DNA of 64,000 bases from Malacoraja senta (GCA_038087875.1 CM075996.1:2172001-2236000), one strand, 5' to 3'. Positions 1,476-57,066 are shown, counted from the stretch's first letter. The notes: a model not told the origin generated them from the sequence alone. Made by a program: numbers and translations.

Positions 1476-1979
1476 GTGAGTCTTCCAAGTGGGAGTTAAC
1501 TGTTGAGGAAGGAACTGCAGGTGCTGGTTTCGATCGAAGGGAAGACACAAAAAATGCCGGAGTAACTCAGCGGGACAGGCAGCCCTCTCTGGAGAGAAGG
1601 AACGGATGACGTTTCGGGTCGAGACCCAGTCTGAAGAAGGGTCTCGACCCGAAAACGTCGCCCATTCCTTCTCTCCAGAGAGGCTGCCCGTCCCGCTGAG
1701 TTACTCCGGCATTTTGTGTCTGAGAGTTTACTGTAATTGTCTGTTTATTGTTTTCCTTCATCCATCCATGTCCATTGCCAAATATCACCCCCCTCCCCCC
1801 CCCCACCCCCACACTAACTGTATAGCCCCCTCTCTGGACCTACTTTCAATGTCAACTTTAGTTGGCCCTCTGGTCCAATCTGTGACACGAGGAACTGGGG
1901 GAGCACTTTTAAAATGTTTTCATATTTTGCTTGGGCAGCAGTATGATTATGAATTACTCTAACTTCAAGTAACCCTTGC

Positions 1980-1996
1980 TTTCTCTCTCTCTCTGA

Positions 1997-2029
<33 letters not shown>

Positions 2030-2692
2030 TGTTTCTCTCTCTCTCTGTCTCTCTCTGTCTCTTTCTCTCTCTGTCTCTTTCTCTCTCTGTCTCTTTCTCT
2101 CTTTCTCTCTCTTTCTCTCTCTGTCTCTCTCTGTCTCTCTGTCTCTCTGTCTCTGTCTCTCTGTCTCTCTGTCTCTTTCTCTGTCTCTTTCTCTCTCTGT
2201 CTCTCTCTCTCTGTCTCGCTGTCTCTTTCTCTCTCTGTCTCTTTCTCTCTCTGTCTCTCTGTCTCTTTCTCTCTCTGTCTCTCTCTGTCTCTTTCTCTCT
2301 CTTTCTCTCTTTCTCTCTTTCTCTCTGTCTCTCTGTCTCTCTGTCTCTCTGTCTCTCTGTCTCTCTGTCTCTCTGTCTCTCTGTCTCTTTCTCTCTCTGT
2401 CTCTGTCTCTCTCTCTGTCTCTCTGTGTCTCTCTCTGTCTCTCTCTGTCTCTCTCTGTCTCTCTCTGTCTCTCTCTGTCTCTCTCTGTCTCTCTCTGTCT
2501 CTCTCTGTCTCTCTGTCTCTCTGTCTCTTTCTCTCTCTGTCTCTTTCTCTCTCTGTCTCTCTCTGTCTCTTTCTCTCTCTTTCTCTCTCTGTCTTTCTGT
2601 CTTTCTGTCTTTCTGTCTCTCTGTCTCTCTCTCTCTCCGTCTCTCTCCGTCTCTCTCTGCCTCTCTCTGCCTCTCTCCGTCTCTCTCTCTCC
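1980..2692. repeat. ~710-bp (CT)n/(CTGT)n compound polypyrimidine microsatellite in an FLT3LG intron
   Basis: Seen directly; it explains the ER-rich ORFs 1814-2788 and 1954-2703. Confidence 0.97.
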
Positions 2693-3594
2693 CAAGTCGT
2701 CATACTTGGTGAGCCAAAGGGCCTGTATCTCTAAACTGCAGGCCCTTTGGCCACCGAGTCCGTGCCGACCATCGATCACCCAGTGCACTTATTCTATCCC
2801 GCACACACCAGGGACAATTCCCAGAAGCCTGTTAACCTGCAGACCTGCATGTTTTTGGAATGTGGGAGAGAACCGGAGCACCCGGAGAAAACCTCCCGCT
2901 GCCCTTGCTGTCAACTGTCGAGTTTTTCAGCATGGAAACACCAGGGACTTTGGGGTCAGGACCTTTCTTCTTCAGTCTGAAGAAAGGTCCCAACCTGAAA
3001 CGTCACCTATCCATGTTCCCCACAGATGCTGCCTGACCCGCTGAGTTACTCCAGCACTCTGTGTCTATCCTCGGCAGTGGGGGTGGTTAGTGCGGGTGTC
3101 AGGGGTTACGGGGAGAAGGCAGGAGAATGGGGTTGAGAGGGAGAGATAGATCAGCCGTGATTGAATGGCGGAGTGGAGTTAGGTCTTCATTAGTTCTTCA
3201 TCAGTCTGAAGAACGGTCCTTTACCCGAAACGTCACCCATTCCTTCTCTCCGGAGATGCAGCCTGTCCCGCTGAGTTACTCCAGCATTTTGCGCCTACTG
3301 GCGGAGTAGACTTGATGGGCCGAATGGCCTAATTCTGGTCCTGGAACCTGTGAATGTATCTCACCACAAGGGTGTAGTGACTGGTCTGTGAAGCTGGAGG
3401 GGAGATTTGAGAACGGCTTGGTTGCATCTGGACACAGCTGTCTGGCAGTGGTTTGGAGAATCTTGTCATCGACAGCCAAGAAATTCTTCAGGGAAATTAA
3501 TTCCTGACGAATGACCCGAGTTTGATGCTAAATTGCTGCCAAAGGTGCAAGGGTCAGTGTAGGGGAATAACGTGGTTGAGAAAGTCGAAGTCGT

Positions 3595-4282
3595 TTAGTT
3601 TACAAATACAGCGCGGAAACATGTCCTTTCGGCCCACGCAGTCCGCACCGACCAGCGATCCCCGCACAGGGGACAATTTTATATTCCTACCAAGCCAAGT
3701 AACCTATCTTTGTAACCGGAGTTCCCGGAGAAAACCCACGCGCGTCACGGGGGAGAAGGTACAAACTCCGTACAGACAGCGCCCGCAGTCAGGATGGAAC
3801 CCCGGGCCTCTGGCGCTGTGAGGCAGCAGCTCTACCCGCTGCGCCACTGAGCGACGTTGGTGCAGATCCTGCGTTCATTCTCCGTGTTTCGAGATACAGC
3901 GCGGAAACGGGCCCTTCGGCCCACCGGGTCCGCGCCGACCAGCGATCCCCGAACACTAATGCTACCCTGCACCCCCCAGGGACAGTTTTTTTAAAATACA
4001 TTTACCAAGGCAATTTGACCTACAAACCTGTACGTCTTTGGAGTGTGGGAGGAAACCGAAGACCTCGGAGGTCACGGGGAGAAGGTACAAACTCCGTACA
4101 GACAAGTACCAGTAACCAGTACTGAGTTGGATGATCAGCCATGATCATATCGAATGGCGGTGCAGGCTCGATGGGCCGAATGGCCTACTCCTGCACCTAT
4201 TTTCTATGTTTCTAATCGGGATCGAACCCGGGTCTCTGGCGTTGCAAGCGCTGTGAGGCAGCAACTCTACCGCTGCGCCACC
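3595..4282 (-). mobile_element. Two adjacent HE1-type tRNA-derived V-SINE copies (3595-3848, 3888-4282); the second contains an inserted CR1 3' tail
   Basis: Reverse-strand head ggcgcagcggtagag...ggttcgatccc, V-domain gtttgtacgttctccccgtgac, and tail gggccgaagggc...tgtatctc. Confidence 0.8.
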
Positions 4283-4356
4283 CTGACCACCTAAGGAGTC
4301 GACCGCAGAACCATCGCTCAATCTCCTCATTCTCCCTATACTTTTGCCTCCAATAG

Positions 4357-4498
4357 GAATCCTCTGACTGTCAAGTAACGCAATGGAATTCTAGGCATCT
4401 TCTCGAGACGTTGCAGGGAAACCTGCAGTCTTTTGATGCGGAATATAAGAGTCAGCAGTGCAACTTCAGTGCATGCGTTTTGCACACCTGCTCACCAG
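4357..4498 (+). CDS. FLT3LG: FLT3 ligand-like coding exon (helix D): ESSDCQVTQWNSRHLLETLQGNLQSFDAEYKSQQCNFSACVLHTCSP(G)
   Basis: Pyrimidine tract plus caatag| acceptor, and donor CAG|gtaagt; 142 nt, phase 0/1. NFSACVLHTCSPG matches human NFSRCLELQCQPD, and ESSDC matches PPPSC. Confidence 0.9.
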
Positions 4499-5154
4499 GT
4501 AAGTGTTTAGGAAGGAACTGCAGATGCTGGAAAATCGAAGGTAGACAAAAGTGCTGGGAAACTCAGCAGGTGCAGCAGCATCTATGGAGCGAAGGAAATA
4601 GGCGACGTTTGGGCCCGAAACGTTGCCTATTTCCTTCGCTCCACAGATGCTGCTGCACCCGCTGAGTTTCTCCAGCACTTTTGTCCACCAGGTAAATGTG
4701 TTCAGTTCAGTTTATTGTCACGTGTACCGAGGTGCAGCGAAAAGCTTTTGTAGCGTGCTAACCAGTCAGCGGAAAGACAATCCACGATTACAATCGAGCC
4801 GTTTGCAGCGTACAGGTGCGTGATATGGCAATGCGAAGGAAGGAACTGCAGATGCTGGTTTACACCGAAGATAGACACAAAATGCTGGTGCAACTCAGCA
4901 GGACAGGCAGCGGCTCTGGATAGAATTCATGGGACGCTGCCTGTCCCTGCTGAGTTACTCCAGCATTTTGTGTCTATCTTCCATGATCAGGGAATAACGT
5001 TAATGCAAGAGAAAGGTTCGATCAGAGATAGTCAGAGGGTCACCAATGAGGTCGATAATTTCAATGCTGTCCCTCCAAAGTCTAAAGTCAGCGGGTCAGA
5101 CAGCAGTTGTGGGGAACATGGATAGGTGATGTTTCAGACTGGGTTACTCCAGCT

Positions 5155-5680
5155 CTCTGTGAAACGTCACCTATCCACGTTCCCCACAGATGCTGCCTGA
5201 CCCGCTGAGTTACTCCAGCACTCTGTGAAACGTCACCTATCCACGTTCCCCACAGATGCTGCCTGACCCGCTGAGTTACTCCAGCACTCTGTGAAACGTC
5301 ACCTATCCATGTTCCGGCAGCATCTATGGAGCGAAGGAAATAGGCAATGTTTCGGCCCGAAACCCTTCCGGGTTTCGGCCCGAAACGTTGCCTATTTCCT
5401 TCAGGGTTTCGGCCCGAAAGGTTGCCCATTTCCTTCGCTCCACAGATGCTGCCTGACCCGCTGAGTTACTCCAGCACTCTGTGAAACGTCACCTATCCAT
5501 GTTCCCCACAGATGCTGCTTGACCCTCTGAGTTACTCCAGCATTCTGTGAAACGTCACCTATCCATGTTCTCCGCAGATGCTGCCTGACCCGCTGAGTTA
5601 CTCCAGCACTCTGTGAAACGTCACCTATCCGCGTTCCCCACAGATGCTGCCTGACCCGCTGAGTTACTCCAGCACTCTGT
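5155..5680 (+). repeat. Tandem array of a 66-bp Penelope-terminus-derived unit (gaaacgtcacctatccatgttc...ccagcactctgt)
   Basis: gaaacgtc recurs at 5161, 5227 and 5293 (period 66) and again over 5480-5680. The same unit occurs at 51535-51725 and 59900-60095. Confidence 0.85.
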
Positions 5681-5741
5681 GTCTGTATTCATCAGCATTG
5701 ATCAATCAAGCTGTTTTCTCTTTGAATCCCTGGTGTTCTAG

Positions 5742-6364: not shown

Positions 6365-7464
6365 GTGAGTGGAGACGGTGGCGAGGCAGGAGGAGGGTGA
6401 TGGATGGAGGGGGGGGGGAGGGGGGGGAGGTGAGGGAAAGGTCTGGTCCCACCTGTGTCCATATGCGGGACCTTTATCAAATCCTTTCTGAAAGGTCCAG
6501 GTACACTACATCAACTGGCTCTCCCTTGTCCATGTCCTAAGTACATCCTCAAAAAATTCCAGAAGATTAGTTAAGCTTAGTTAGTTAATTAGATTAAGAT
6601 TAGTTAATGATTTCCCCTTTGTGTGCTTCCACTACGGGTGCTGACTGTACGGAGTTTGTACGTTCTTCCCGTGACCTGCGTGGGTTTATCTCCAGGAGCA
6701 CTGGTTTCCTCCACACTCTAAAGACGTACAGGTTTGTAGGCTAATTGGCTTCGGTAAAGTTTAAACTTGTCCCTAGTGTGTTAGGACAGTGTTAGTGAGC
6801 GGGGATCGCTGGTCGGTGTGGACTCAGTGGGCAGAAAGGCTGTTTCCGCGCTGTATCTCTCAAGTCTAAGTAAAATATTTGAAGTTAAATTGAAGAATTC
6901 AAAATCAACCTCATTTTCATTTGTTTGGTAGACAAAAATGCTGGAGAAACTCAGCGGGTGAGGCAGCATCTATGGAGCGAAGGAAATAGACAATAGGTGC
7001 AGGAGTAGGCCATTCGGCCCTTCGAGCCAGCACCGCCATTCAATGTGATCATGGCTGATCATCCCCAATCAGTACCCCGTTCCTGCCTTCTCCCCATATC
7101 CCCTGACTCCGCTATCTTTAAGAGCCCTATCTATCTCTCTTGAAAGTATCCAGAGAACCGGCCTCTGAGGCAGAGAATTCCACAGACTCACCACTCTCTG
7201 TGAGAAAAAGTGTTTCCTCGTCTCCGTTCTAAATGGCTTACCCTAATTCTTAAATAGGCAACGTTTCGGGTCGAAACCCCTTCTTCAGATTCTTTTTCGA
7301 TGGTCAGCGTGGACCGAAGTGCCAATTTCAATTTCCTCGATGACTTTTTAAGGGGGGGCATCAATCAGCTTTAGAGGGAGACATTTCCAGATTGGGTGGG
7401 CTAAAGGGGAATGTTTCAGCGCTGTATCTCTAAACTAAACCACCCTTGTTTGTCTGTCGACTAG

Positions 7465-8475: not shown

Positions 8476-8528
8476 TGTATCTCTGATACTGACGCTGCAG
8501 CTGATGAGGGTGTTTCTCCTTGTTGCAG

Positions 8529-10845: not shown

Positions 10846-12737
10846 TCGATTCTTTTCTGTGTGCAGGTAAACCTTATTGGTGTCTGTTTGGGCTGTGCTT
10901 GTGAAGCAATCCGAACCTTAACTGGGATGTAATGCTGGAGGCTCTATAAGGCGCTGGTCAGGCTGCATTTGGAGTATTGTGAGCAATTTTGTGGCAATCT
11001 TGTGTGGAAGGATGTGCTGGCCCTCGGAGAGGGTCCAGAGGAGTTACGAGAATTATCCCAGGAATGAGTGGGTTAACATATCGGGGATGAGCGTTTGACG
11101 GCACCAGGCCTGTTCTCGCTGGGGTTTAGAAGGATGAGGGAGGGGGGAGACCTCATTGAAACTTACCGAATAGTGAAAGGCCTGGATAGAGTGGTCAAGT
11201 TTATTCGTCACATACGAAAACAGATGTGCAGTGAAATGAAACATAGAAACATAGAAACATAGAAAATAGGTGCAGGAGTTGGCCATTCGGCCCTTCGAGC
11301 CTGCACCGCCATTCATTGTGATCATGGCTGATCATCCAACTCAGTATCCCCGTACCTGCCTTTCTCTCCATACCTCCTGATCCTTTAGCCACAAGGGCCA
11401 CATCTAACTCCTCTTAAATATAGCCAATGAACTGGCCTCAACTACCCTCTGTGGGTAAAAGTGGCAATGCTCGCGAATTGTGCAAAAAAAACTACAAAAC
11501 AGAATGGAACAGAATCACATAATACATATTTGTGGGAGGGGAAAAAAGAGAAAAAAACAGCAATTTAAAAAGACACCACCCAACAGGAAAATTGGTCCCG
11601 TGCGTTAGTCCCTGGTCCTAATGGCCTCTGGATGTGGAGAGGATGTTTTCACTCGTGGGAGAGTCTAGGACCAAGGGTCGTAGGCTCGGAATTTAGCTTA
11701 GTTTAGAGATACAGCGTGGAAACAGGCCCCTTCGGCCCACGGAGACACACCGACCAGCGATCCCCGCACACTAACACTGTCCTACACACACTAGGGACAA
11801 TTTTACACTTATCTCAAGCCAATTAACGTCTATTGTCTATTGTGTGAATGCAAGACTGCATGTGTGTGTGTGTGGATTAAAGAATGAGTGTGTGGGAGAG
11901 AGTGTGACAGAGAAATGTGTGTGTGTGGGTGTGCGACTGTGCACATCCAAGAATGCGTGCGTGAGAGAATACGCGTGCGAGAGAGTGAGCGAGCAGTGTG
12001 TGTGAGGCAGAGAATGTATGCAGGTGTAGAGTGAGTTAGAAAGTATGTTTGAGAGAGCGCGAGTGTGAGAGAAAGTGTATGTGCTAAGATGTGTATGTGT
12101 GTCAGGTGTGAGAGGGAGAGAGAGTGATTGTGTAGGAAGGAACTGCAGATGCTGGTTCATACAGAAGATAGACACAAAAAGCTGGAGTAACTCAGCGGGA
12201 CAGGCAGCGTCTCTGGAGAGAAGGAATGGGTGACTCCTTCGAGTCTGAAGAAGGGGTCTCGACCCGAAACGTCACCCATTCCTTCTCTCCTGAGATGCTG
12301 CCTGTCCCGCTGAGTTACTCCAGCACTCTTGTGTCTACCTTCGGTGAGAGTGAGTGTTGCTAATTGCAAATGCCTCGACATTGATGAACGGGGCTGAAGT
12401 GACTCAGATAAGCCCCAGAGGCAGGATGTTGGCTGAGGATGTGAGCTGACTGCTGCTTGTAGGGGCTTTTCGGAGGGACTGTTCCAGATCAATGCAACTA
12501 ATGATGAAAGGGTTGTAGAGAAGGGGGGGGGGGGCGTGCGTTACTAACCAGAGAATGATGACCTCAGCCCAATTGGGCAATCCCAGCACAAATTAGCAAG
12601 TGAGCTGTCCCCCACAAGTCAATCTTGCCTTCTCCTGAGATGCCAGCAAATGAATTGTTGGACTGAATCCAGTGTCAACGTGGAGCCCAGCAAATATGTT
12701 CAGTTTAGTTTAGTTTAGTTCAGTCAGAAACATAGAA

Positions 12738-17752: not shown

Positions 17753-18039
17753 TGTTGGGAATGAGAGGGAACAAGAGGGAATGTGAACAAATGCCCCATA
17801 GAACGAATATCTGCTCCACGTGTGGGAGGAAGCCGGAGCCCTGGAGAAAACCCACGTGGTCACGGGGACAACGTACAAACCCCGTCCAGTTCTTTACTAA
17901 ACTGTGTAGGAAGGAACTGCAGATGCTGGTTTAAACCGAAGATAACACAACATGCTGGAGTAACTCAGAGGGACAGGCAGCATCTCTGGAGGGAAGGAAT
18001 GGGTGACGTTTCGGGTCGAGACCCTTCTTCAGAGTAGGA

Positions 18040-19472: not shown

Positions 19473-20235
19473 GGAGCACTGGTTTTTGATGATCAGCCAT
19501 GATCATATTGAATGGTGGTGCTGGCTCGAAGGGCCGAATGGCCTACTCCTGGACATGGATAGAAAGGTTGAGAGGGATATAGGCCATACGTGGGGAGATG
19601 GGAGTAGCCTAGAAAGGGCATCTTGGGTCAGCATGGATGAGAAGGGCTGAAGGGCCTGTTTCGTGACTGAAGAAGGGTTTCGGCCCGAAACGTTGCCTAT
19701 CTCCTTCGCTCCATAGATGCTGCTGCACCCGCTGAGTTTCTCCAGCATTTTTGTCTACCTTCTGTTTCGTGACTCGATGCCTCCAGTGTATTGGGTGACA
19801 TTTGCTCCATTCCATCACGCTAGTTTTTCCACGTTAGATATTGCAATACACTAATTTCTGACCAGGCCTGCTCTTCTTCCATGCTGTTCAAGTTTCACGT
19901 TGTCGACTAGAAGAGGCTGCACATCTGAAGAAGGGTCACGAAACAGAAGGTAGACAAAAATGCTGGAGAAACTCAGCGGGTGCAGCAGCATCTATGGAGC
20001 GAAGGAAATAGGCAACGTTTCGGGCCGAAACCCTTCTTCAATCATGAAACAGGCCCTTCAGCCCTTCTCATCCATGCTGACCCAAGATGCCCTTTCTAGG
20101 CTAGTCCCATCTCCCCACGTATGGCCTATATCCCTCTCAACCTTTCTATCCATGTCCAGGAGTAGGCCATTCGGCCCTTCGAGCCAGCACCACCATTCAA
20201 TATGATCATGGCTGATCATCAAAAATCAGTACTCC
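19473..20235. repeat. Inverted duplication with ~300-bp arms (19473-19773, 19935-20235) and a ~160-bp spacer
   Basis: The arms are near-identical reverse complements (compare ORFs 19503-19748 - and 19960-20205 +). Confidence 0.9.
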
Positions 20236-22243: not shown

Positions 22244-22443
22244 NNNNNNNNNNNNNNNNNNNNNNNNNNNNNNNNNNNNNNNNNNNNNNNNNNNNNNNNN
22301 NNNNNNNNNNNNNNNNNNNNNNNNNNNNNNNNNNNNNNNNNNNNNNNNNNNNNNNNNNNNNNNNNNNNNNNNNNNNNNNNNNNNNNNNNNNNNNNNNNNN
22401 NNNNNNNNNNNNNNNNNNNNNNNNNNNNNNNNNNNNNNNNNNN
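22244..22443. other. Assembly gap (200 N)
   Basis: N run. Confidence 1.
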
Positions 22444-32453: not shown

Positions 32454-32889
32454 AGATTACAATAAACTGGGGGCTCGAAGCAGCATCTTAATAACCAGGT
32501 GACTCTGGCCTTTCCTGAGGAAGTGCCTCTGGATGAGGATGACTTGCATCCTCTGGGTTTGTGCATTCAGAGGCCAATGTGTTCAGAGGCCAGGGGTTCA
32601 TCCCAATCACTGTGGCTTATTGGGGCAACTTTTTTACACAGAGCGTGGCGAGTGTCTAGATGGTGCTGCCAGGGGTGGTGGTGTAGTCAGATACAATAGT
32701 GGCCTTTAAGAGACTTTTGGATAGGAATATGAATATGGAGAGAAATGGATTATGTCTGAAGTCTGAAGAAGGGTCTCGACCCGAAACGTCACCCATTCCT
32801 TTTCTCCAGAGGTGAGAGGTGCTGCCTGTCCCGCTGAGTTGATTTTGTGTCTACAATGGATTATGTGTAGGCAGATAGGCAGATGGTTG

Positions 32890-41400: not shown

Positions 41401-44391
41401 CGGATGGGATTAGAATCAGGTTTACAATTCTAAAGGGAATAGAGGGAGGGGTGTGTGTGTGTGTGTGGGGGGGGGGGGCTGTTTGTGTACACACTGAATC
41501 GCACCAAAGATAGACACAAAATGCTGGAATAACTCAGCGAAATGTCGCCCATTCCTTCTCTCCAGAGATGCTGTCTGTCCCGCTGAGTTATTCCATCATT
41601 TTGTATCTATTTTCGGTGTAGCCCAGCATCTGCAGTTCCCTCCTGCACACTGAATCATATCAACCTGCCTCGCCACAACGCAAACTTCCACTGGCAAATG
41701 TATTTGTTGTAAACCACCCTTCTTTCTCACACGACCAGCTAACAGTCCCCGATGGGGTTTCTGACGACAACTCGCCTCCAGATATGCGATACAAAACGAG
41801 TTAGCTTTCCAAAGGTAGACTCAAAAATAATTCAATTTGCAACATAAATATCAGTAAACCATTTCCACTCGGATGAAAGGGAATGAAGGTAGACACAAAA
41901 TACTGGAGTAATTCAGCGGGTCAGGCAGCATCGCTGGAGAACGGGGAATACGTGACATTTCGGGTCGAGACTCTTCTTCAGACCCAAAACGTCACATCTT
42001 CCTTCTCTCCAGAGATGCTGCCTGAACCGCTGAGTTTTGTGTCCATCTTCGGTTTAAACCAGCATCTGCAGTTCCTTCCGACAGTTTAGATTTCCAAATT
42101 TGGGTTGGACCCAGAACTCACTAGTATTGCTGTAACTCATCCATAATTCAATCCCTGCCCTATAACCCATACTCTGATTTTTCCTATAATTATGTCCAGT
42201 GAAGATGAGCCATTAGTCAGATCTATAGCGATGTGTTGGTTCATTCTAAGTTTGGTTGCAGGCCGGCGGGTTTAATGTTGGAACGGGGAACACGGCGCTC
42301 ATTTGGAAATTTCCGGAACATTAAGGTGTCAAAGGCGATTTTTCCGTCGGTTTTTCCGATTATTTTCAATCAAAATTCCGGCCGGTTATTTAAACAACAA
42401 GCGTGGCGAAACATCGTGCCGCGGGGGCGGGGGCAACGTTCAAGGGACAACATCTCCCAAGGGCGGCTTAAGATGGGTAAAACGGCCAATGTCATCACTA
42501 TCACAGGAACAGAGATGAATAATAGATTTTAGATTGCCACGTGATCTGATCAAGAGGTCAGAGAATTCCTCTGGGGAACGAGATTCAGCAATTTATCCGC
42601 CCTACAGCGGTTTTAGATATCAAGTACCTTGCAAACGAGGGCTCTCAACGAGGGTACACAAAAATGCTGGAGAAACTCAGCGGGTGCAGCAGGGCTCTCA
42701 ACGAGGGCCTGAGCTACAAGGAGAGGTTGGGCCGGCTAGGACATTTTTCCCCTTGGAGCTCAGAAGACTGAGGAGTGATCTTATGGAGGTGTATAAGATC
42801 ACGATGGGAATCGATGGGGTGAATGCACAGGCTCTTTCTCCCACAGTAGGGAAATCAAGATCCCGAGGGAATGGGTTTAAGGTGAGAGGAGAAAGATTTA
42901 AAAGGAACCTGAGAGGTCCACAACATCAACCTTTCCTATCCATGTACCTGTCCAAATGTCTCTTAAATGTGGTTATATTACCTGTCTCAACTACGTACTA
43001 TAACAACCTCTGGCAGCTCGTTCCATACACCCACCAATCTCTGTGGGGAAAAGGTGCTCCTCAGGTGGCTATTAAATTGTTCGTCTCTCACCTTAAACCT
43101 ATGTCCTCTGGTTCTTGATCCTCCTGTCCTGGGGGGGGGGGGGGGAAATATTCTGTGCATTCACTCTATTTATTCCCCTCATGATTTTATGCATCTTTAT
43201 AAGGTGTCACCTTCTCCATAAATGATAGTTAAAAGACCAGGTTCCAATAGGCCAATTGTAGGCTAGGGTTTTGGGCGCCAACAATTGGGCTACCAGAGAA
43301 CCAGCTCATCTGTTGATGGCCCTGGTTTGTTCTTGTCTTTTCTTGCTTCTTCCACCCCCTTCCCCCCCTACTTTCAGTTTGAACAAGTCTCCCAACCCAA
43401 AACAGCATCTATCCTTTCTCTCCAGAGATGCTGTCTGACCCGTTGAGTTACTCCAGCACTTTGTGTCTATCTTTGGCATAAACCAGCATCTGCAGTTCTT
43501 TGTTTCTACCTTCTTGATTATGTTTAGCAAATTGGCCTCTAGATCTCATCTGACCTCAAATCTGCGACTTCATGAAAATACTATAGGTTTACCACCCTCA
43601 AAAAATGTTACCATCTCAGTCCATAACGTCTCTCCTAAGATTGTGACCCTGGTTCAATAAATGCCAGCCAGGGGAAACATCTGACTAAATAAGACACAAA
43701 GTGTTGTAGTAACTTAGCAGGTTGGGCAGCATCCCTGGAGAACACGGATAGATGAAGTTCCAGGTCTTGAGATTGGTTGTAGCAGGGAGGAAAGAAAACT
43801 GGAAGAGAGGAGGGGCGGGACAAAGCCTGGCTGGCTTGTAAGATTCCCTGCAATTCTTATGTTCGAATCTTGGAAATTCAGGAATCATCCGTTGGAAATG
43901 AATTCAGATTTGTAAATTGGACGCGCTGGAGACGGCAGATGCTGGAATCTGGAGCAGCTAACAATCTGTTGGAGGGGCTCTAGAACAAGGAATGTTGTGA
44001 CAAGCTGATTGTTTGTGTTCCAATTATGTGCTGCGATGAAAAGAAATGTAAATGCAAGAGTAGAGATTAGGGGGAGAAGGCAGGAGAATGGGGTTAGGAG
44101 GGAGAGGTAGATCAGCCATGATTGAATGGTGGAGTAGACTTGATGGGCCGAATGGCCTAATTCTACTCCTATTCCTTATGACCTTATGATATACAGGCAG
44201 ATGTGATGGTCGGCATCATTATCGGCACAGACATTGTGGGCTGAAGGGCCTGTTTACATGCAGGCAGAGGGGATTAGTTAAACCTGACACCATGTTCGGC
44301 ATGGACATAGTGGGCGCAAGGGCCTGTTCCTGTACTGCACTGTTCTATCTTCTATGAGTATTTTGAAAAGGACGAGTAAAGCACTATAGAA

Positions 44392-44693: not shown

Positions 44694-47031
44694 ATGCAAG
44701 TCTGCCGCGATTTAAAATATATCCCGAGTAATTAATAAGACATTTGGAGGATGCAATTATTCGTCAGAGGCTGTTTGACGTAATATTTGATCAGGAGTGA
44801 GACGATGTTCCCGTCAACGTTGGATCGACTGACACTGAATTAAAGTTATTGAGATGGTGCCAGAATTCTTCAGCCCCCCCCCCCCCCCCCACCTGGAGAG
44901 GCAGCTGTCAGCCAGAATTGCACGGCACAGTGGCACAAACTCCAGGCAAGGTCATCAGCCTGCTTTCCCTTTCCTCTGCTTTATTAATCTGTAAATGTCT
45001 TTCATTGTATATTATCCAGTTAACCCCAGGACGTGGGTCTTTGCATCCCGACTGAGCTACAGCTCAGGCACTCTGACCGTAGAATCACCAGAGCTCTGGC
45101 CTTCGTGTTATAGTCAAGCAAAGCCAGGTCTTTATTTCAAGAACGCTTTGTTCTTTAAGACTTTAAGGTCATGAGTCTGATGCTTGACGCATGCGTCACA
45201 GAACCCCTGGCGGTGTTTCGAATCTTCCTTTTATCTTTCGAATGTGAAGACACCAAGGTGGAATCGCAAGGAACTGCAGATGCGGGTTTACAAGAAAAGG
45301 GACAAAGTGCCGGAGGAACTGTAGAAGGCTCCCGACCCATAAACGTCACCTATCCGCCCAGTCTGAAGAAGGGTTTCGGCCCGAAACGTTACCTATTTCC
45401 TTCGCTCCATAGATGCTGCTGCACCCGCTGAGTTTCTCCAGCATTTTTGTGTACCTTCTCCAGAGACCTGCTGAGTTACTCCAGCACTTTGTGTCATTTT
45501 GTGGAAACCAGCATCTGCAGTCCCTTGTTTCCACTGCTGGAGTAACTCAGCGGGTCAGGCAGCATCTGTGGAGAACATGGATAGGTGACGTTTCACAGAG
45601 TGCTGGAGTAACTCAGCGGGGGGGGGGGGGGGGTTGGGTCAGGCAGCATCTCCGGAGAACATGGATAGTAACGTTACGAGGAGCTGCAGATGCTGGTTTA
45701 TACCAAAGACACAAAGTGATGGAGTAACTCAGCGTCTCTTGAGAACATGGATAGGTCTGAAAAAGGGTCTCGACCAGAAACGTCACCTATCCATGTTCTC
45801 CACAGATGCTGCCTGACCCGCTGAGTTACGCCAGCATTTTCTGTCTAACTTAGGGTCCTGGGGGATTGGGGTTGGGATTCTGGGGGTGCCTGTCCTTATT
45901 TTAAATTGCTTTAACAATGTTCCATGTTTGATGGTATTGGTTTATTGTTGACAGGAGGCTGTAAAAACTAAGTTTATATAAGGCAAAAGGACACAGAGTG
46001 CTGGAGTAACTCAGCGGGTCAGGCAGCATCTGTGGAGAACATGGATAGGTGACGTTTCGGGTTGTGACCCTTCTGATTGAACCGTCCCGGCTTGAAACGT
46101 CACCTAGTCATGATCTCCAGAGATGCTGCCTGAGCCATTGAGTTACTCCAGCAAGTTGTGTAAAGAGAGCAGCTTCAGCCCATTTTGAGACGGATCCATC
46201 CCAGGTTTAACACCTTGCATTACTTTAATCCTCATGGCTGCCCTAGGGGAATAGTGTTGGGTGGCAAAGCGTAGCTGTTCCATCCAGTCCCAATGGTTTT
46301 TCGTCTGGTCTGGTCTTGAAATTGTGGTCACTGCCGAACTAAACCTTTAATGCGGTAACCGCCTCGTGAAAGATCAGCCATTTTGTGAATATCTGCAAGA
46401 GTTACATTTGGAGACTTTCAAAATGATGACGAGATTTAAATCTATTTAAAAAAAAATCCATGCAGTGAAAAGCCTCAGTAGTATCCAGAACAGAATGAAA
46501 GGTTATTAAAGATAGCAACGATGCAATTACGCTGGAAAGGATGAAGAAAAGATTTACAACAATATTGCCTGAGTTGAGGGTTTGAGCTACAGAGAGATGT
46601 TGGGTCGGCTGCGACTCTATTCTTTGGAGTGCAGGAGACTGACGGGTGATCTTATAGAGGTGTATAAAATCATTGGGCAATATATAGGGTGAATACATAG
46701 AGTATTTTTCCTAGAGTAGGGGAATCAAGAGCCAGAACGCATAGGTTTAACGTAAGAGGGGAAAGATTTAATTGGAACTTGAAGGGCATTTTTTTCACAC
46801 AGAGGGCGATGGGTATATGGAACGAGCTGCCAGGGGAAATAGTTGAGATATTTAAATGACGTAGGCAGGTACATGGATTGGAAATGTGGAAGACCATGAC
46901 AAAGGAGCAGAATTAGGCCATTCAGCCCATTGAGTCAAACATGGCTGATCTATTATTCCCTCTGACCCCATTCTCCTGCCTTCTCCCCATAAGACTCAGG
47001 GGGTCTCTTTTGCCAAACACAGGCAAATGGG

Positions 47032-47158
47032 TCTGAGGAAGGGTCTCGACCCGAAACATCACCCATTCCTTCTCTCCAGAGATGCTACATGTCCCGCTGA
47101 GTTACTCCAATATTTTGTATCTATCTTCGATTTAAACCAGCATCTGCAGTTCCTTCCA
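47032..47158 (+). mobile_element. Penelope-derived short retroelement with a hammerhead core and a 13-bp TSD
   Basis: acaggcaaatggg at 47019-47031 and 47159-47171; CTGAGGA-A-GGGTC-TC-GACCC-GAAAC-ATC at 47033-47060. Confidence 0.75.
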
Positions 47159-48428
47159 ACAGGCAAATGGGACTAGCTTAAATGGTCATCTTGGCTGGCA
47201 TGACGAGTTGGGCCGAAGGGCCTGTTTCTGTACTGTGTGACTCTATGACTCTAAGTGTGTGCCTTAAACATTGTGTCATAGCAGAGCAGATGAATAAATG
47301 ATTCAGTCCTTCATTATTTACCGATCTTTGTCCGTAATCGTTGATATTTTTACCCAATTAAAAGTCTATTGATGTTTGAACATCGTTAGGGTCATCTTAG
47401 GTTGAAAGAAGCTGAAGTGAAGAGCTAGAAATGTCCTCTACCACCAGGAGTGAAGGTAAAACAGGTTCACCTACAAAATGATTTGCATTAATTTGAGCTG
47501 CATTCCATGGAGTTTAGTTGAGTTATGATCTAATTAAGATCTAATTTAAAAAAAAAAGATGAGGTAAATCAATGGGTCAAGCAGCATCTCTGGAGAATGT
47601 TCATAAGTCATAGACACGGAAGTAGGCCATTCAGCCCATCAAGTCCACTCCGCCATTTAATCATGGCTGATCTATCTCTCCCTATCAACTCCATGATCCT
47701 GCCTTCTCCCCATAACCCTTGACACCCAGACTAATCAAGAATCTGTCGATCTCCACCTTAAAAATACTCAATGACTTGGCCTCCACAGCAGTTTGTTCTC
47801 CACAGATGCTGCCGATCAGTGAGTTACTCCAGCACTTTGTGTCTTTTTTTTTGTAAACCAGCATCTGCATTTCCTTGTGTCTCTAAGTTCTAAATAAGTT
47901 GTACAAAATGGTCAGCTGTGATCTTGTGGGTGGTGGAGCTAATGGGTCTATTCTTGCTGTTACTTATGTTTTAAAGAGATTCAGCAGTCACTGGTCAGGG
48001 ACCCTGGATGATAGAGAGGCTAAAGATAGACGCTAAAAGCTGGAGTAACTCAGCGGGTCAAGTCAAGTCACTTTTATTTCTACAGCACATTTAAAAAAGA
48101 ACTCTCGTTGGCCAAAGTGCTTTACATTGGTGGAGATACTAACGTTATACAACAGTGGTTCATAGATTAAATACAAACATCACTACATACATACAGCCCT
48201 CGCTCAGAGGACGTCAAGAAAGGCTTGGGAGTAGAGATGAGTTTTAAGTCTCGACTTAAAGGAGTCGATGGAGGGGGCAGTTCTGATGGGAAGAGGGATG
48301 CTGTTCGCTGGAGAACGGGAATAGATGATGTTTTCGGGTCGAGTCCCTTCATCAGACTGAAGAGAGGCCATTCTGGAATGAGATAGATAGATCGTGGAAG
48401 TTTGTAACCCTTTCTCCATCCTTGATCT

Positions 48429-50085: not shown

Positions 50086-50296
50086 GACGGTGGGTAAGGT
50101 ACCAAGAACAGCACCTATTTTACCCAGAATTAACATCTAGCTTCCTGAGTGAACTTCGGTGAACTTTGTAATCTTGTTGGCACCAGAAACTCTTGTGTGA
50201 AGTCTGCTGTCTGGTTTTACCGGGTTGTACCACAAAGCATTTGACTGTGCCTCGGTACACGTGACAATGAAGTATCATTGAACCATTGAATCATTT

Positions 50297-50580: not shown

Positions 50581-52248
50581 TGTTGCCGGAGCTGAACCTT
50601 TCAAGGGCAAGTGAAGATGCACTCTTTGACGGCTGTATAATTGGTGTGGAAGGACGTGTGGAGATGAGTGATGAGCCACTCGCTGCGGAGTTTGCAACCT
50701 CTGGATCGCTGCCGGGACCCATTGGGGGAAATGTTGGCAGCGGTGTTTAAGTGTGAAAATATCCAGCTGAACCAATTTAGTTTGATTAGCATTTGAACTT
50801 TTTTTTAACTTCTAAGTCGGTCTGAAAATGTAACTTCTTGTTGAATGAGGTGTAGCTAAGCATTTAACAGAATGCTAATCTATAATTTACTGCTTAACAA
50901 CTTGTCTGCCGCTAAAAGGAAATTGATTTCCATGCGCTGTTGATTTCTCTCTGATAAGTATTTTCGTTCTTTGAAAAAGTAGTGGAATTTATTTATATTC
51001 ATTCAGCTCTAAGCTACCAATATGTTTTTCAGCTCTAAGCTACCAACACTGCAGGCTCTTGACTCCTGGTTGCAAACTATTTTAACTCCCCTTCCCATTC
51101 CCACACTGACCTTTCTGTCCTGGGCCTCCTCCATTGCCAGAGTGGGGCCACACGCAAACTAGTGGAACAGCACCTCATATTCCACTTGGGTAGCTCACAA
51201 CCAAACAGTATGAATATTGAATTCTCCAATTTTAGATAACTAACTTACACAAGATCCCCCCCCCCCCCAATTCTTCTCATCATCCTCTGTCCCTGTCTAT
51301 ATCCACTACCACCTATTATATCCACTTCCACCTATATTCCTTCCTCCGGCTTCACAATTCGTGCCTCTTCTATCCTTACCTCCTCTCTCACACTTTTGTT
51401 TTTTCATCTCTGGCATTTGTACAACCATCTGCCTATCAACCTCCCCTCCCCCTCGCTCACATGTATCCACCTATCACTTGCCAGGCTTTGTCCTGCCCTC
51501 CTCATTTGCAGCTTTCTTCCCCCCCCCATCCCACCCATGTCACCTATCCATGTTCTCCACAGATGCTGCCTGACCCGCTGAGTTACTCCAGCACTCTGTG
51601 AAACGTCACCTATCCATGTTCTCCACAGATGCTGCCTGACCCGCTGAGTTACTCCAGCACTCTGTGAAACGTCACCTATCCATGTGCTCCACAGATGCTG
51701 CCTGACCCGCTGAGTTACTCCAGCACGTTGTGTCTTTTTTTGTAAACCAGCAACTGTAGTTCCTCATGTCCAAGCTCTGATTGCCTGTGTTTCTCTGTGC
51801 CTCTGCCTCTCTTTCCTCCTTAAAGACCTGTCCTTTGCCCCAAATCTCTGCCTCCGTCCCAATACGTCGCTCGGCCAAAGTTAATTTTGTTTCATGGCAC
51901 CGTGGGCAATTGCTGTAGGATGTTTTGCTGTATTTAAGAGGTTTCATGGGTTATAGTTATCAGGATGGGGCACGGGCTCTAACGCAGGTCTGTTTCTGCA
52001 GAATAGACCCAGAGGGTTGTCAATCTGTGGAATTATGTGCCACAGAAGGCAGTGGAGGCGAAATAAATTATATATAAAATTATACACAAGGGAGAAAAAG
52101 ACGAAAACTACCTAAAATCATAAGAAAATGTAGTGGAGGGTGAATGAAATGTTGTGATAAAGCTTCAAGGGTGAATGACACTGAAATAGTTTAAGAAACA
52201 GTGACCTAGAGTTCCTCCCTCTTACACTTCAACCTCCTTGCCATTCTG

Positions 52249-52704
52249 TTTAAGAAGGAACTGCAGATGCTGGAAAATCGGTGAGACCAAGTGTAGGCTT
52301 GGCGATCATTTCGCCGAACACCTCCGCATTAACCAACCTGATCTCCCTGTGGCTCAGCACCTCAACTCCCCCTCCCATTCCGAATCCGACCTTTCTGTCC
52401 TGGCCCTCCTCCACGGCCAGATTGAGCACCACCGGAAATTGGAGGAGCAGCACCTCATATTCCGCTTGGGCAGCCTGCACCCTAGTGGCATAAACATTGA
52501 CTTCTCCAATTTCCGGTAGCCCTTGCTGTCTCATCCCCCTTCTCAGCTCTCCCTCAGCCCTCTGGCTCCTCCTCTACCTTTCTCCTTTCTTCTCCCCCCC
52601 TCCCCACCACATCAGTCTGAAGAAGGGTTTTGGCCCGAAATGTTGCCCATTTCCTTCGTTTCATAGATGCTGCTGCACCCGCTGAGTTTCTCCAGCACTT
52701 TTGT
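52249..52704 (+). mobile_element. Penelope-like element fragment (GIY-YIG C-terminal part, terminal repeat with hammerhead core, short inverted 5' piece) with a 16-bp TSD
   Basis: IGETKCRLGDHFAEHLR...PVAQHLNSPSH...KLEEQHLIFRLG...GIN. TSD cctccttgccattctg at 52233-52248 and 52705-52720. Confidence 0.85.
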
Positions 52705-53887
52705 CCTCCTTGCCATTCTGACGGGTGCTCTGTCCCCCTCACTAGCTGCCTGCTCCCACCACTTTGCCAGCTCTGTGTTTCATCGTGCCCAAGGTACAGT
52801 GTGCCAACATTGATGAGTTTCTCACTCTGCCCGGCAATCTGCCTGCAAGCTCCATACTGAGTCACTTGACCTTTTGCAAATCCTTTGCATCCTTCTCACT
52901 TTCCATCGAGCTTAGCAACATCAACACACTTGGGGGCATCTCTTATTCTTTGAACTTTTCTGCATTGATATAAATTTGGAGTCGCCGAGGCTCAATGCAG
53001 GTCCTCACGATGCCATCAGTAACTGCCCAGCAACTTGAAGGTAGCAAGGTGACCCGTCCTCTATGAACGGTCTCGACCCAAAACGTCACCTATTCCTTTC
53101 CTCCACAGATGTTGCCTGACCCGCTGAGTTCCTCCAGATTTTTGTCTCTATTCTTTCTAATCCATCACTCCCAAAGCTTAGTAATACTTTTTAATCAAAC
53201 ACAGGAACTCACGGGTCAGGCACTGTGTGTGTGGAGAGAATGGACAGGTGACGTTTCGGGTCACTACCATTGTCCTAGCTTGTAGAAGTCTCACTACCAG
53301 AAATGGCATCTGTCCAGAACTGTCTCCACAGATGCTGCCTGGCCCGCTGAGTTCCTCCAGCACTTTGTATTTTGCTCAAGGATCCAGCATCTGCAGTTTC
53401 TTGTGTAACCTTTTTTCCTGTTTGAACAACCTGCTACCCCAAAACTGGGTGGTTTTGCAGATAGTGAAGCTGGTTGTGAAAAAATTGCAGCAGGATCTTG
53501 ATCGATTGGCCAGGTGGGCTGAGGAATGGTTGATGGAATTTAATATGGAGCAAGATAAGGTGATGCTTTTGTGGAAATCTCTATACAGTGAATGACAGGG
53601 CTCTGGGTAGTGTTGTAGAGCAGAGGGATCTAGGAGTACAGGAGCATGGTCTTTTGGCACATTGGGCTTCAGAATATTGAGTAGAGGTTGTATAAGATGT
53701 TGGTGAGGCCACATTTAGGGTATTGTGTTCTGTTCTGGGAACCATGTTAAGGAAAGGTGTTGTCAAGCTGGAAAGGGTACAGAGAAGATTTACGAGGATG
53801 TTGCTAGGATTAGAAGGTCTGAGCTATAGGGAGAGGTTGAGTAGGCTGGGACTCTGTTCCTTGGAGCGCAGGAGGATGAGGGGTGAT

Positions 53888-54087
53888 NNNNNNNNNNNNN
53901 NNNNNNNNNNNNNNNNNNNNNNNNNNNNNNNNNNNNNNNNNNNNNNNNNNNNNNNNNNNNNNNNNNNNNNNNNNNNNNNNNNNNNNNNNNNNNNNNNNNN
54001 NNNNNNNNNNNNNNNNNNNNNNNNNNNNNNNNNNNNNNNNNNNNNNNNNNNNNNNNNNNNNNNNNNNNNNNNNNNNNNNNNNNNNNN
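53888..54087. other. Assembly gap (200 N)
   Basis: N run. Confidence 1.
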
Positions 54088-54526
54088 CCGCCGGCTTGGC
54101 TTTGTGTGCAGTCCAGCAGTCGGGCCAACTCATCATTCACCCAGCCACGGCCAAGTCGGTCAACAAATTGCCGTCGGAACTTGCCACTTATTTTGACCTT
54201 TTTGTCCCTTATTTGGAAGCGAGAAAGTTGGCAACCCTAGCCACAAGCGGAGTGGTTCCACAGAGTCTGAGGTTAGTGTTGTGCAGCGTTCAAGAGCCTG
54301 CTGGTTGTTGGGAAGAAGCTGTTCTTGAACCAGGAGATCACGGCTGTCAGGCTCCTGTACCTTCTTACCGATGTAGTTCCCTTCGATGGTGGGAAGGTGA
54401 GTACCCGTGATGGACCAGGCTATGTCCACTGCATTTTATAATCTTCATTCCTGGGCTTTCGAGTTGCCAAACCAGGCCACGATACAACTAGTCAATATAA
54501 GCTTTATGAGTACACCTGTAGAAGTT

Positions 54527-55112
54527 GCCTCCCCCCTCGTCTCCATTCAAGGACCCAAGCAGTCGTTCCAGGTGTGACAGAGGTTCACCTGCATCTCCAA
54601 CCTCATCTATTGCATCCGCTGCTCTAGATGTCAGCTGATCTACATCGGTGAGACCAAGCGTAGGCTTGGCGATCGTTTCGCCGAACACCTCCGCTCGGTC
54701 CACATTAACCAACCTGATCTCCTGGTGGCTCAGCACTTCAACACCCCCTCCCATTCCGTATCCGACCTCTCTGTCCTGGGCCTCCTCCATGGCCAGAGTG
54801 AGCAACACCGGAAATTGGAGGAACACACCTCATATTCCGCTTGGGGAGTCGGCATCCTGGTGGCGTGAACATTGAATTCTCACAATTCTGTTAGCCCCTG
54901 CTGTCTCCTCCCCTTCCCAACTCTCCCTCAGCCCTCGGGCTCCTCCCCCTCCTTTTTGCTTTCTTCTCACCGCCCCCCCCCCACCCCCCATCAGTCTGAA
55001 GAAGGGTTTCGGCCCGAAACGTTGCCTATTTCCTTCGCTCCATAGATGCTGCTGCACCCGCTGAGTTTCTCCAGCATTTTTGTCTACCTGGGCTTTTCCA
55101 GCATCTGCAGTT
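54527..55112 (+). mobile_element. Penelope-like element 3' fragment encoding the GIY-YIG endonuclease, followed by the terminal repeat
   Basis: FTC.SNLIYCIRCSRCQLIYIGETKRRLGDRFAEHLRSV...VAQHFN; hammerhead core at 54996-55023. Confidence 0.85.
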
Positions 55113-55599
55113 CTTTCTTACGCATCTGCAGTTCATTGTATCTCCAATGTTCATACCATTAGGTTGTAAGCTATCCAAATAGGATATCTTATGCTGTTCC
55201 ACCCGTTACTATCCATTCCCTCCACAGCTGCTGCCTGACCCGCTGAGTTCCACAAGCGCTTTCTGTTCTGAGCAACAATGAATGATAAAGCTGCGGTACC
55301 AGGGTGCTACGACGAGAGGGCAGCACAGAGCACAATTGTAATAGCAGGTAAGGCCACAAGATGGCAGAGCAGCTCCACGGAGGTAGTAGATTCTGAGGCT
55401 GGGAGTGTGTCAGAATTAACAGGGCTTCCCATGGATTGAATGAATGAATGAATGTCAATGTTTATAGGTGGTCTCAAGAAGTGTGTCAGTATTTACAGGT
55501 ATTCCAGGAAATGAATGAATGCGTGCTAGTATTTACAGGGGGGTTTCAGGAAGTTTGTCAGTATCGGTTTGTGAAAAACTTACTGCTCAGATTCTTATT

Positions 55600-56445
55600 A
55601 GATTAGATTAGATTTTATTTGTTGTCATTTGAACCCAGAGGTTCAAACGAAATTTGGTTTCTGCAGTTATACAAACAAGAAGAACCAAGACACAACACAA
55701 TTTACACAAACATCCATCACAGCGAATTCCTCCTCACTGTGATGGAAGGCAAAGTCTTGTCTCTCCCGTGCACTCCCCATTCTCCTCCCGATGTCAAAGT
55801 CAAAGCCCCCGGCGGGCGATGGTAAATAAGTCCCGCGGCCATTAAAGCCGCGCCGGGCGATGCAAGGCCGCGCTCCGGGTCTTGATGTTGGAGCCCCCGG
55901 TAGCGCTAGCAAGTCCCGCGGCCATTTAAAGCCGCGCCGGGCGATGTAAGGCCCCGCTCCAGGTCTTCTTCAACCCCGCAACTCGGGCGGGAGAAGTTGC
56001 CGTTGCGGAAGCTCCGAAAACCGGTCTCCCACCAGGGACCCGCGAGCTCCTGATGTTACCGTCCACCGGACCTGCGTCTGGAGCCTCCGAAGCTCCGGGG
56101 TCGGGCCGCAGCAGCGAGCCACCACAGCTCCTCCCGTTCCGAACTCGGCCAGCTCCGCGATGGTAAGTAGTCCGCAGGCTCCGCGACTGGAGCCCCAGGT
56201 CGTTCCGGTTGGAGGCCGCTCCACGGTGCTAGGCCCCAACGACAACGGAGACCCGACAGAGAAAGGTCGGGTCCTCCGTACAGGGAAAAGATTTTCAAAG
56301 TTTCCCCACCCCACCCCCCGCCCCCCCACACATACCCAGTTAAAAAAAACACTACAAACTACACTCAAACGAGACAAATAAAATAATAAAAGACAGACGG
56401 ACTGCAGAGGCCGATGCGACATGGGTCGCGCCGCCTACCGGAATC
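55600..56445 (-). mobile_element. CpG-rich non-autonomous retroelement with a Rex1-like 3' tail
   Basis: The minus strand ends ...aaatttcgtt...aatgacaacaaataaa(atcta)n. No ORF homology; internal ~80-bp duplication at 55828-55965. Confidence 0.55.
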
Positions 56446-56451
56446 TTTGTT

Positions 56452-57066
56452 CTAGAAGGAACTGCAGATGCTGGAAAATCGAAGGTAGACAAAATTGCTG
56501 GAGAAACTCAGCGGGTGCGGCAGCATCTATGGAGCGAAGGAAATAGGCAACGTTTCGGGCCAAAACCCTTCTTCAGACTGATGTAGGGTGGGGGGCCGGG
56601 AGAAGAAAGGAGAAAGGAAGAGGAGGAGCCAGAGGGCTGAGGGAGAGCTGAGAAGGGGAGGAGACAGCAAGGGCTACCGGAAATTGTAGAATTCAATCTT
56701 CATGCCGTTGGGGTGTAAACTGCCCAAGTCTGGTGCTGCCCCTCCAATTTTCAGTGGTGCTCACTCTGGCCATGGAGGAGGCCCAGGACAGAAAGGTCGG
56801 ATTCGGAATGGGAGGGGGAGTTGAAGTGCTGAGCCACAGGGAGATCAGGTTGGTTAATGCGGACCGAGCGGAGGTGTTCGGCGAAACGATCGCCATGCCT
56901 ACGCTTGGTCTCACCGATGTAGAGCAGCTGACATCTAGAGCAGCGGATGCAATAGGTGAGGTTGGAGGAGGTGCAGGTAAACCTCTGTCACACCTGGAAC
57001 GACTGCTTGGGTCCTTGAATGGAATCGTGGGGGGAGGTAAAGCGACAAGTGTAGCATCTCCTGTTG
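56452..57066 (-). mobile_element. Penelope-like element 3' fragment (GIY-YIG + terminal repeat)
   Basis: Reverse complement of the sequence family at 54527-55112. Confidence 0.85.

Follow-up and report, generated by a model that had tools for sequence, protein, structure and literature searches.

A genuine minimal Penelope-type hammerhead ribozyme in a skate genome, carried mostly on dead element fragments

Introduction

The association between hammerhead ribozymes and Penelope-like elements (PLEs) appeared in print in 2014, is treated as general for the repeats of these retrotransposons (review PMC6765202), and is not new here. The present analysis concerns a 64,000-nucleotide stretch of the genome of the skate Malacoraja senta (GCA_038087875.1 CM075996.1:2172001-2236000; this whole stretch is called the window), in which an initial annotation, made from the sequence alone, had listed 16 hammerhead cores on short Penelope-derived repeats, some of them in introns of the gene FLT3LG.

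Metazoan PLE hammerheads conserve an unpaired base between positions 9 and 10.1, a G10.1-C11.1 pair and the palindrome, and helix I is only 2 bp in the Penelope of Drosophila virilis (Cervera and de la Pena 2014, PMC4209133). In coelacanth and Xenopus, single motifs were reported to be dispersed and to number in the thousands; cleavage was absent for monomers and low for dimers (PMC4209133). The skate motif shares with these ribozymes the type I core, the lack of a real helix III, the palindromic positions 15.2-16.2, the G10.1-C11.1 pair, and the location in the pseudo-long terminal repeat (pLTR), as well as the dispersed single motifs attributed to truncated PLEs and the close pairs on opposite strands. 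The short stem I and the extra A, which the initial annotation flagged as caveats, are both known features of this class (PMC4209133). Unlike the motifs of Schistosoma, the skate motif has a helix II of 4 bp rather than 7-8 and a helix I of 2 bp rather than 4-5 (PMC4209133). No cartilaginous fish appears in the text parts or the two supplement files of that paper that were searched, though its figure supplement may list one. Literature searches likewise returned no description of PLE hammerheads in cartilaginous fish; a preprint (bioRxiv 10.64898/2026.07.22.740005) reports retrozymes in one chondrichthyan, and its supplements may hold more.

Three further systems bear on the locus. In the Poseidon element PAc of Anolis, two internal sites downstream of the ribozyme serve as starts of reverse transcription (RT), which is primed on both strands and copies mainly uncut RNA (Frangieh et al. 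2024, PMC11167929); the ribozyme depends on protein, and RNA-seq revealed no ends at its cut site. The skate family resembles PAc in having the ribozyme upstream of two putative RT start sites that define a tail, in insertions that fit uncut RNA, and in apparent priming of both strands. It differs in belonging to another clade (by a CX4CxxC linker), in placing RT start ~65 and ~95 nt past the cut site, and in being known from sequence alone. With Neptune and Nematis (Craig et al. 2021, PMC8557442) it shares a GIY-YIG endonuclease with the residues C, C, H, H (CCHH), the linker, heavy 5' truncation, an inverted 5' copy and a one-ended tail; unlike these, its target duplications lie in ordinary sequence with no clear microsatellite bias, and its tail is ~28 nt rather than 30-40. 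Finally, non-LTR retrozymes (bioRxiv 10.64898/2026.07.22.740005) are, like the skate repeats, pLTR-derived and non-coding, and tandem 66-bp arrays do occur in the skate; unlike retrozymes, the units of those arrays lack CUGANGA and stem II, and the ribozyme-bearing copies are monomers or inverted pairs.

Results

The hammerhead core in distant relatives

A protein-alignment scan of metagenome contigs identified 56 loci, 37 of which included the end of the open reading frame (ORF) and 200 nt of room behind it. A strict core lay on the sense strand within 300 nt past the ORF in 12 of these 37, as against 0/37 on the antisense strand and a mean of 0.008 in shuffled sequence, and ~8 further loci carried one-off or degenerate cores at the same place. 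The core-bearing loci are distant relatives (protein identity up to ~66%), and the flanks of relatives are 25-28% identical to the skate copy.

Pairing was assessed on cores from the window (7) and from relatives (16), aligned without gaps, against 500 shuffles and slid controls. Paired bases filled 84.8% of cells and 9 of 10 pairs showed two-sided change, a level matched by 0/500 shuffles and compared with 20-49% in the slid controls; all five measures stood above 500/500 shuffles, a test that the kinship of the rows inflates. Two-sided changes occur in both stems I and II. Within stem II, 94.6% of cells are paired, 4/4 pairs changed on both sides, and column 14, following A9, is an invariant A. 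Pair 2.1-1.1 of stem I is formed in 23/23 rows with 8 two-sided changes (U-A or U-G in the skate, A-U in relatives) and pair 2.2-1.2 in 21/23 (C-G in two loci), while the outer pairs are formed in 12/23 and 6/23. Stem I measures 2 bp in the skate against 2-4 bp in relatives, and its predicted probability in the skate is at most 0.03. The palindrome reads ACGU in 21 of the 23 rows, with AUAU in one relative (L016) and one mutant in the window.

Equal conservation of core and flanks between subfamilies, which the initial annotation had named as speaking against a ribozyme, was not what the window copies displayed. None of 14 core columns differed among subfamilies, compared with 21 of 77 other columns (p=0.034), and the CUGANGA and GAAA boxes, U16.1 and H17 are invariant among the subfamily majorities. 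The conservation of individual copies (6/286 mismatches in the core versus 98/1799) was dropped as evidence because the copies had been selected for intact cores. With the core kept, the flanks unrelated, and stems I and II compensated in distant relatives, the hammerhead reading holds. The proposal of a minimal type I hammerhead of a PLE is supported, as are ACGU as the proposed dimer palindrome and the predicted cut after GUC or GUU. That the motif is instead a chance resemblance amplified inside a repeat is extremely improbable and largely refuted: an Rfam search of the window returned no hammerhead at the gathering score or at E<=10, and copies in one window are non-independent, but behind the ORF of relatives with flanks of random identity the core is found again at the same spacing and position, with two-sided pair changes.

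Four more distant relatives also hold other hammerhead-like variants, located 346-474 nt past the ORF, in which the sequences of stems II and III differ (L010:3269, L013:1945, L016:1125 and L032:3548). Five marine relatives (L002, L044, L051, L026 and L030) carry an inverted second copy of the ribozyme-bearing end, as is the pattern in the window.

Cores in the window

The motif or a close variant is present at 16/16 listed positions. The strict pattern (CTGANGAAN{8,16}GAAACGT) matched 10 times in the window, compared with a mean of 0.01 and a maximum of 1 in 100 shuffles. While all 16 cores are recognisable, with variants as the annotation had noted, only 7 are fully intact, combining the core with a 4-bp stem II, the ACGU palindrome and NUH (2977+, 19667+, 32763+, 45363+, 54996+, 18032- and 56576-), and a stem I of at least 2 bp is retained in only 5 of these. 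The remainder have one extra G in stem II (12245+ and 7288-), an extra A following GAAA (1631+ and 48355-), a lost palindrome (47033+, 52617+ and 41981-), a C10.1xC11.1 mismatch (3206+) or a lost C3 (20041-, part of a local inverted duplicate of 19667 plus flank). The estimate of about one core per 4 kb is not supported for working cores: 7 are intact in 64 kb, and none stands in a tandem ribozyme array. The local inverted duplication spans 19600-19767 and 19941-20100 and includes a PLE insertion with its flank. At 45679-45855 an inverted arm is joined to C3 of the direct arm and produces an 8-bp stem I, a rare route to a long stem I; neither this stem (at 45757) nor the 7-bp stem I at 47033 was accepted as native, as they derive from the inverted arm and from target DNA, respectively. 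Features of the window are collected in Table 1.

Table 1. Element copies, cores and related features in the window
Position	Strand	Feature	Details
1071..1286	-	GIY-YIG C-terminal remnant	Remnant 1286-1191, then A-type unit without core
1332..1475	+	FLT3LG exon	81% identity to P0048 (Rhinoraja protein); AG/GT borders
1500..1722		Head-to-head pair	Inverted arm 1509-1627 (-) with tail; sense arm carrying core 1631, palindrome broken by extra A
2977..3004	+	Intact core, subfamily C	G10.1-C11.1 to A-U two-sided change; FLT3LG intron, sense
3206..3234	+	Core with C10.1xC11.1 mismatch	229 nt past 2977, same intron; 9-nt target duplication
5139..5690	+	66-bp head-to-tail array	Subfamily C unit from G12, no CUGANGA/stem II; nested B-type pair; TRF period 66, 8.3 copies
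7252..7290	-	Cut-off unit	Core 7288 (extra G); antisense in last FLT3LG intron
12130..12345		Head-to-head pair	Inverted arm with tail; sense arm carrying core 12245 (extra G)
17903..18035	-	Tailed short unit	Intact core 18032, 1-bp stem I
19667..19762	+	Short insertion beginning at C3	Intact core, no stem I; 13-nt target duplication; inverted duplicate 19941-20041
32757..32855	+	Short insertion	Intact core 32763; 12-nt target duplication
41884..42082		Head-to-head pair	Variant core 41981 (-), tailed arm (+)
45358..45458	+	Short unit	Intact core 45363
45533..45678	-	Fourth locus with the 66-bp junction	
45679..45855		Head-to-head pair	Inverted arm begins at predicted cut site; core with G8A
47032..47160	+	Tailed short insertion	Variant core 47033; 13-nt target duplication
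48305..48362	-	Variant core 48355	Palindrome and stem II damaged
51063..51236	+	GIY-YIG C-terminal remnant	No hammerhead behind; tblastn E 3e-18
51537..51764	+	Second 66-bp array	Tail at end
52250..52706	+	PLE insertion	Inverted tail ~52250-52280; GIY-YIG remnant up to 52519; core 52617-52644, palindrome broken; end without tail; target duplication of 16 nt
54525..55120	+	5'-truncated PLE copy	Frameshifted GIY-YIG 54527-54894, intact core 54996-55023, tail; Pfam GIY-YIG (PF01541) 23.5 bits, cut-off 22.6
56448..57085	-	Longest 5'-truncated PLE copy	Linker, broken GIY-YIG remnant, 98-nt pyrimidine-rich spacer, intact core 56576-56549, tailed downstream unit; tblastn P0005 E 8e-39, P0006 E 2e-40
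59880..60100	+	Third 66-bp array	Stem II and degenerate core in first unit

Repeat family and the insertion of its copies

The initial count of copies was too low. A profile built from 11 window copies recovered 80 pieces of one unit of ~100/125 nt, amounting to 6,415 bases (10% of the window), of which 19 extend to C3; the CUGANGA half is absent from most. The pieces form three subfamilies (A, B and C), 78-82% identical between and 90-96% within, and where they differ at N17, 1.1 and stem II, H and the pairing are retained.

The copies have the appearance of insertions that are 5'-truncated and in many cases inverted, with tails and duplicated target sequence. At 9 of the 27 insertions examined, exact duplications of 9-16 nt lie on either side, compared with 10/2000 random pairs. 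The 3' ends of the 71 non-tandem pieces are bimodal, falling in columns 96-115 (37 pieces) and 126-134 (24), with the others cut short, and the difference between the two groups is the PLE tail. Loose ends of contigs from four sequencing runs on 54500-55160 (two runs gave ~99,000 and ~108,000 contigs) pile up behind 55080-55089, consistent with a common short 3' end. Summed depth was greater over the unit than over GIY-YIG; it is no measure of copy number and carries no weight here. Exactly one arm is tailed in 10 of 15 adjacent minus/plus pairs and both arms in none; in an eleventh pair the tail sits behind an internal deletion.

The predicted cut site is spanned by 59 of the 80 pieces, and the templates were therefore uncut or re-ligated. 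Enrichment of 5' ends at the cut site was considered and rejected, as only 3/69 start within two columns, like neighbouring stretches; one suggestive case lies at 45679-45756. The 5' ends do concentrate on the 5' half of the ribozyme. Removal of 10 tandem units and one duplicate left 69 pieces; 34 of the 38 reaching columns 6-25 end there and 4 continue, compared with 15/53 in the preceding 20 columns (p 3e-9), and several of these are true ends because target duplications abut them.

This stop zone has two possible causes: transcription may begin just before C3, so that RT runs off there, or RT may stall at stem II and in the C-rich spacer. The former could be extended to a ribozyme at the 5' end of the messenger RNA (mRNA): transcription would start in CAGT, three bases before C3, run-off RT primed at the first pLTR would mass-produce the 100/125-bp units, and a conserved competing helix would hold the ribozyme off until the element protein binds. 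A start in CAGT would explain the 2-bp stem I, the CAGT of B copies matches the human initiator consensus BBCA+1BW (PMC5287114) at 5/6 positions, and the Penelope promoter lies within the transcribed region (PMC2377424). We consider this extension doubtful. A pyrimidine tract and CAG|T just before CUGA (54989-54995, 52610-52616 and 56577-56583(-)) resemble both an initiator and a 3' splice site, and in D. virilis a 3' splice site, or intron end, lies at helix I. CAGT is absent in relatives, which weakens the initiator and splice-site ideas alike, and a spliced form at CAG|T was rejected given that every copy extending upstream keeps the unspliced AGT.

A tandem derivative and the question of a non-autonomous family

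Four loci share a 66-bp junction that joins the unit end to G12, at the foot of stem II (11 occurrences, all subfamily C), and all 9 internal tandem units begin at G12. The sharing of one fixed junction by scattered loci whose 3' ends are normal suggests that a tandem master was itself mobilised, and the derivative suggests that the ribozyme is dispensable for mobilisation. The arrays were rejected as retrozymes: without CUGANGA and stem II no unit holds a complete hammerhead, so that they fall outside the preprint's definition and self-processing is impossible.

The amplification of a separate non-autonomous family, as the initial annotation proposed, was not borne out, given the ragged 5' ends, the inverted arms, the tails, and three 80%-identical subfamilies of which one is continuous with GIY-YIG DNA. 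In its fullest form this explanation, which is unlikely, holds that the short units are a self-propagating family resembling short interspersed elements (SINEs) or retrozymes, with an internal promoter and RT start site, whose dispersed copies are transcribed and whose mobilisation depends on the PLE protein acting in trans. Upstream DNA is absent from 65 pieces and present in 4, the 5' ends cluster, the Penelope promoter is internal (PMC2377424), non-LTR retrozymes derive from pLTRs with one chondrichthyan case (bioRxiv 10.64898/2026.07.22.740005), and the single fixed junction that the 66-bp array shows at four loci indicates that a derivative was mobilised. A SINE-like lineage of its own would have a fixed 5' end, however, and those here, although clustered, are ragged and spread across 20 nt and more. 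Further, over ~90 nt the identity of short B-type copies to the copy at 54996, which bears GIY-YIG, is 97-100%, no tandem array holds a whole ribozyme as the retrozyme definition requires (bioRxiv 10.64898/2026.07.22.740005), and the sole clear derivative, the 66-bp unit, is without the ribozyme's 5' half.

Parent element

Five GIY-YIG remnants occur in the window, all broken or partial, and 54-63% identical to shark and ray RT-GIY-YIG proteins. The GIY-YIG piece has its best protein matches in the skates Leucoraja erinacea (87%) and Rhinoraja longicauda, followed by sharks and a stingray, which suggests DNA of a skate or close relative. A core does follow the remnant at three sites, as annotated, but 97-101 nt beyond the stop codon rather than directly 3' of the coding sequence. 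None of the five remnants extends into the reverse transcriptase; the matched shark and ray proteins carry its motifs upstream of GIY-YIG, seen as weak RVT_1 matches in the relatives P0005 and P0008.

Alignment of 17 sequences (A1) revealed invariant C, C, H and H and a CX4CxxC linker. A CX2-5CxxC linker before GIY-YIG marks Neptune/Nematis and is absent in Penelope/Poseidon (PMC8557442), and its presence in the relatives points to a Neptune/Nematis type as opposed to Penelope/Poseidon, which have no linker zinc finger. Features of endonuclease-bearing PLEs found here are a C-terminal GIY-YIG with CCHH, 5' truncation, an inverted 5' copy, a one-ended tail and target duplication. A protein-alignment search of viral contigs identified no relative among 135 candidates, and the downstream motif was absent from the viral and metagenome contigs searched. 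The C-terminus of P0004, a zebra-shark gene model, reads through the 3' untranslated region as LMKGLRPKRQ, the translation expected from the same hammerhead core, and is a candidate occurrence seen in the protein only.

Predicted folding

Folding predictions gave A and B copies a stem II probability of 0.00-0.05 once 15-30 nt downstream were included, with the purine-rich core pairing instead with the pyrimidine stretch that lies downstream. Copy 2977, of subfamily C (0.86), was the only window copy tested with a predicted stable stem II, and 6/7 relatives reached 0.5-0.8. The modelled ACGU duplex contributes only about -3 kcal/mol, and inverted arms, such as those at 1631 and 12245, would pair across the core or cut site. 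Two of the three subfamilies are predicted to misfold stem II, and self-cleavage of the window copies is not supported.

These predictions bear on a further reading, in which the skate motif survives as a relic or serves as a signal without catalysis (promoter, splice or RT-stop) and subfamilies A and B have lost cleavage altogether. The idea can draw on the low stem II values and short stem I compared with the relatives, on the failure of 8/9 Xenopus dimer elements tested to cleave (bioRxiv 10.64898/2026.07.22.740005), and on Anolis insertion in vitro being unimpaired by ribozyme mutants (PMC11167929). It is improbable, as the core is unchanged among subfamilies that differ elsewhere in ways that keep H and pairing, the Anolis ribozyme likewise needs protein and yet cleaves (PMC11167929), and nearest-neighbour folding leaves out both protein and co-transcriptional order.

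Host gene and other features

The presence of FLT3LG in the window was confirmed by five exons matching P0048, a protein which itself matches Pfam Flt3_lig (E 1.9e-10); single exons had no Pfam match, a search with short motifs gave nothing, and the identification came via P0048. The exons lie on the plus strand at ~1-45, 1332-1475, 4357-4498, 5742-6363 and from 7465, for a span of 1 to ~7520. The exon at 5742-6363 encodes a long Ser/Thr/Pro-rich stalk, ~200 amino acids with a membrane helix, also found in the Rhinoraja protein. Sense copies within the gene, as proposed, are those at 1631, 2977 and 3206, all in the intron 1476-4356, while the core at 7288 is antisense in the last intron.

Cores 2977 and 3206 could be imagined to act together as a double hammerhead, cutting the pre-mRNA with an effect on FLT3LG, as the geometry is nested and complete, both copies have ACGU, GUC and matching 2-bp stem I arms, and stem II of 2977 is predicted stable. 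This is very unlikely: the forced fold lies 31.8 kcal/mol above the minimum-energy fold of 2965-3260, core 3206 is without the 10.1-11.1 pair, and a same-strand neighbour within 250 nt is by our estimate unremarkable at this density. An effect of the insertions on FLT3LG is in general unlikely.

The window also contains remnants of long interspersed elements with reverse transcriptase and endonuclease domains, unrelated to the PLE, at 14036-16287(+), 25421-28225(-) and 48888-50119(-), and two 200-base assembly gaps (22244-22443 and 53888-54087).

Discussion

The minimal PLE hammerhead of the window is genuine and its host group is new, although it is carried mostly on dead fragments. Its repeats are probably the 3' pLTR ends of an endonuclease-bearing retrotransposon of the Neptune/Nematis type, produced by internal priming on uncut RNA, with the ribozyme a passenger in the dispersed copies. 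This explanation draws on the 3' order, the two 3' ends, the target duplications, the inverted arms, and the long-range conservation and covariation of the ribozyme, all of which are observed. The full element would end in GIY-YIG, a pyrimidine-rich spacer of ~100 nt, the minimal type I hammerhead, ~65-70 nt and an optional ~28-nt tail. By analogy with the Anolis element (PMC11167929), its protein would nick DNA and start reverse transcription inside uncut RNA at either of two sites downstream of the ribozyme; synthesis would mostly halt in the ribozyme's 5' half, leaving insertions of 100-125 bp, and would rarely continue into GIY-YIG. Priming of both DNA strands would create the head-to-head pairs with one arm tailed. 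The ribozyme would be under selection in active master elements, where it probably cuts slowly as an ACGU-paired dimer with protein help, while dispersed copies would mostly be truncated, mutated, paired with an inverted arm or misfolded.

It should be noted that several points weigh against this explanation. The strict motif is absent in 25 of the 37 loci with sufficient room, identical or near-identical loci among the other 12 leave fewer than 12 independent cases, and the relatives were chosen for the alignment because the core was present. The probable placement as Neptune or Nematis depends on one motif rather than a tree, and the window copy keeps the CxxC of the linker while its first cysteine is mutated. 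Only subfamily B is joined to GIY-YIG DNA with the spacer intact; subfamily A is joined via one deleted copy (1071-1286) and C not at all, and A or C could therefore be non-autonomous. The one-tail pattern of the pairs is weak alone (p=0.07), and the Anolis mechanism would have to carry over from a different clade (Poseidon). The window is without any full-length element, and master structure, transcription start and cleavage are therefore putative.

Two details are new, namely the pile-up of 5' ends on the ribozyme's 5' half and the ribozyme-less 66-bp derivative at four loci. Should the reading of a protein-gated ribozyme at the mRNA 5' end be true, the genome would harbour large numbers of cut sites kept dormant by protein gating, including some within introns of host genes like FLT3LG, and insertion ends would map the PLE transcription start and both RT start sites at single-base resolution. 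The window provides a dense natural record in a cartilaginous fish; it extends to a second PLE clade the agreement with the model, derived in vitro, in which uncut RNA is primed internally, and both the sharp stop zone and the mobilised derivative without a ribozyme bear on the question of PLE hammerhead function.

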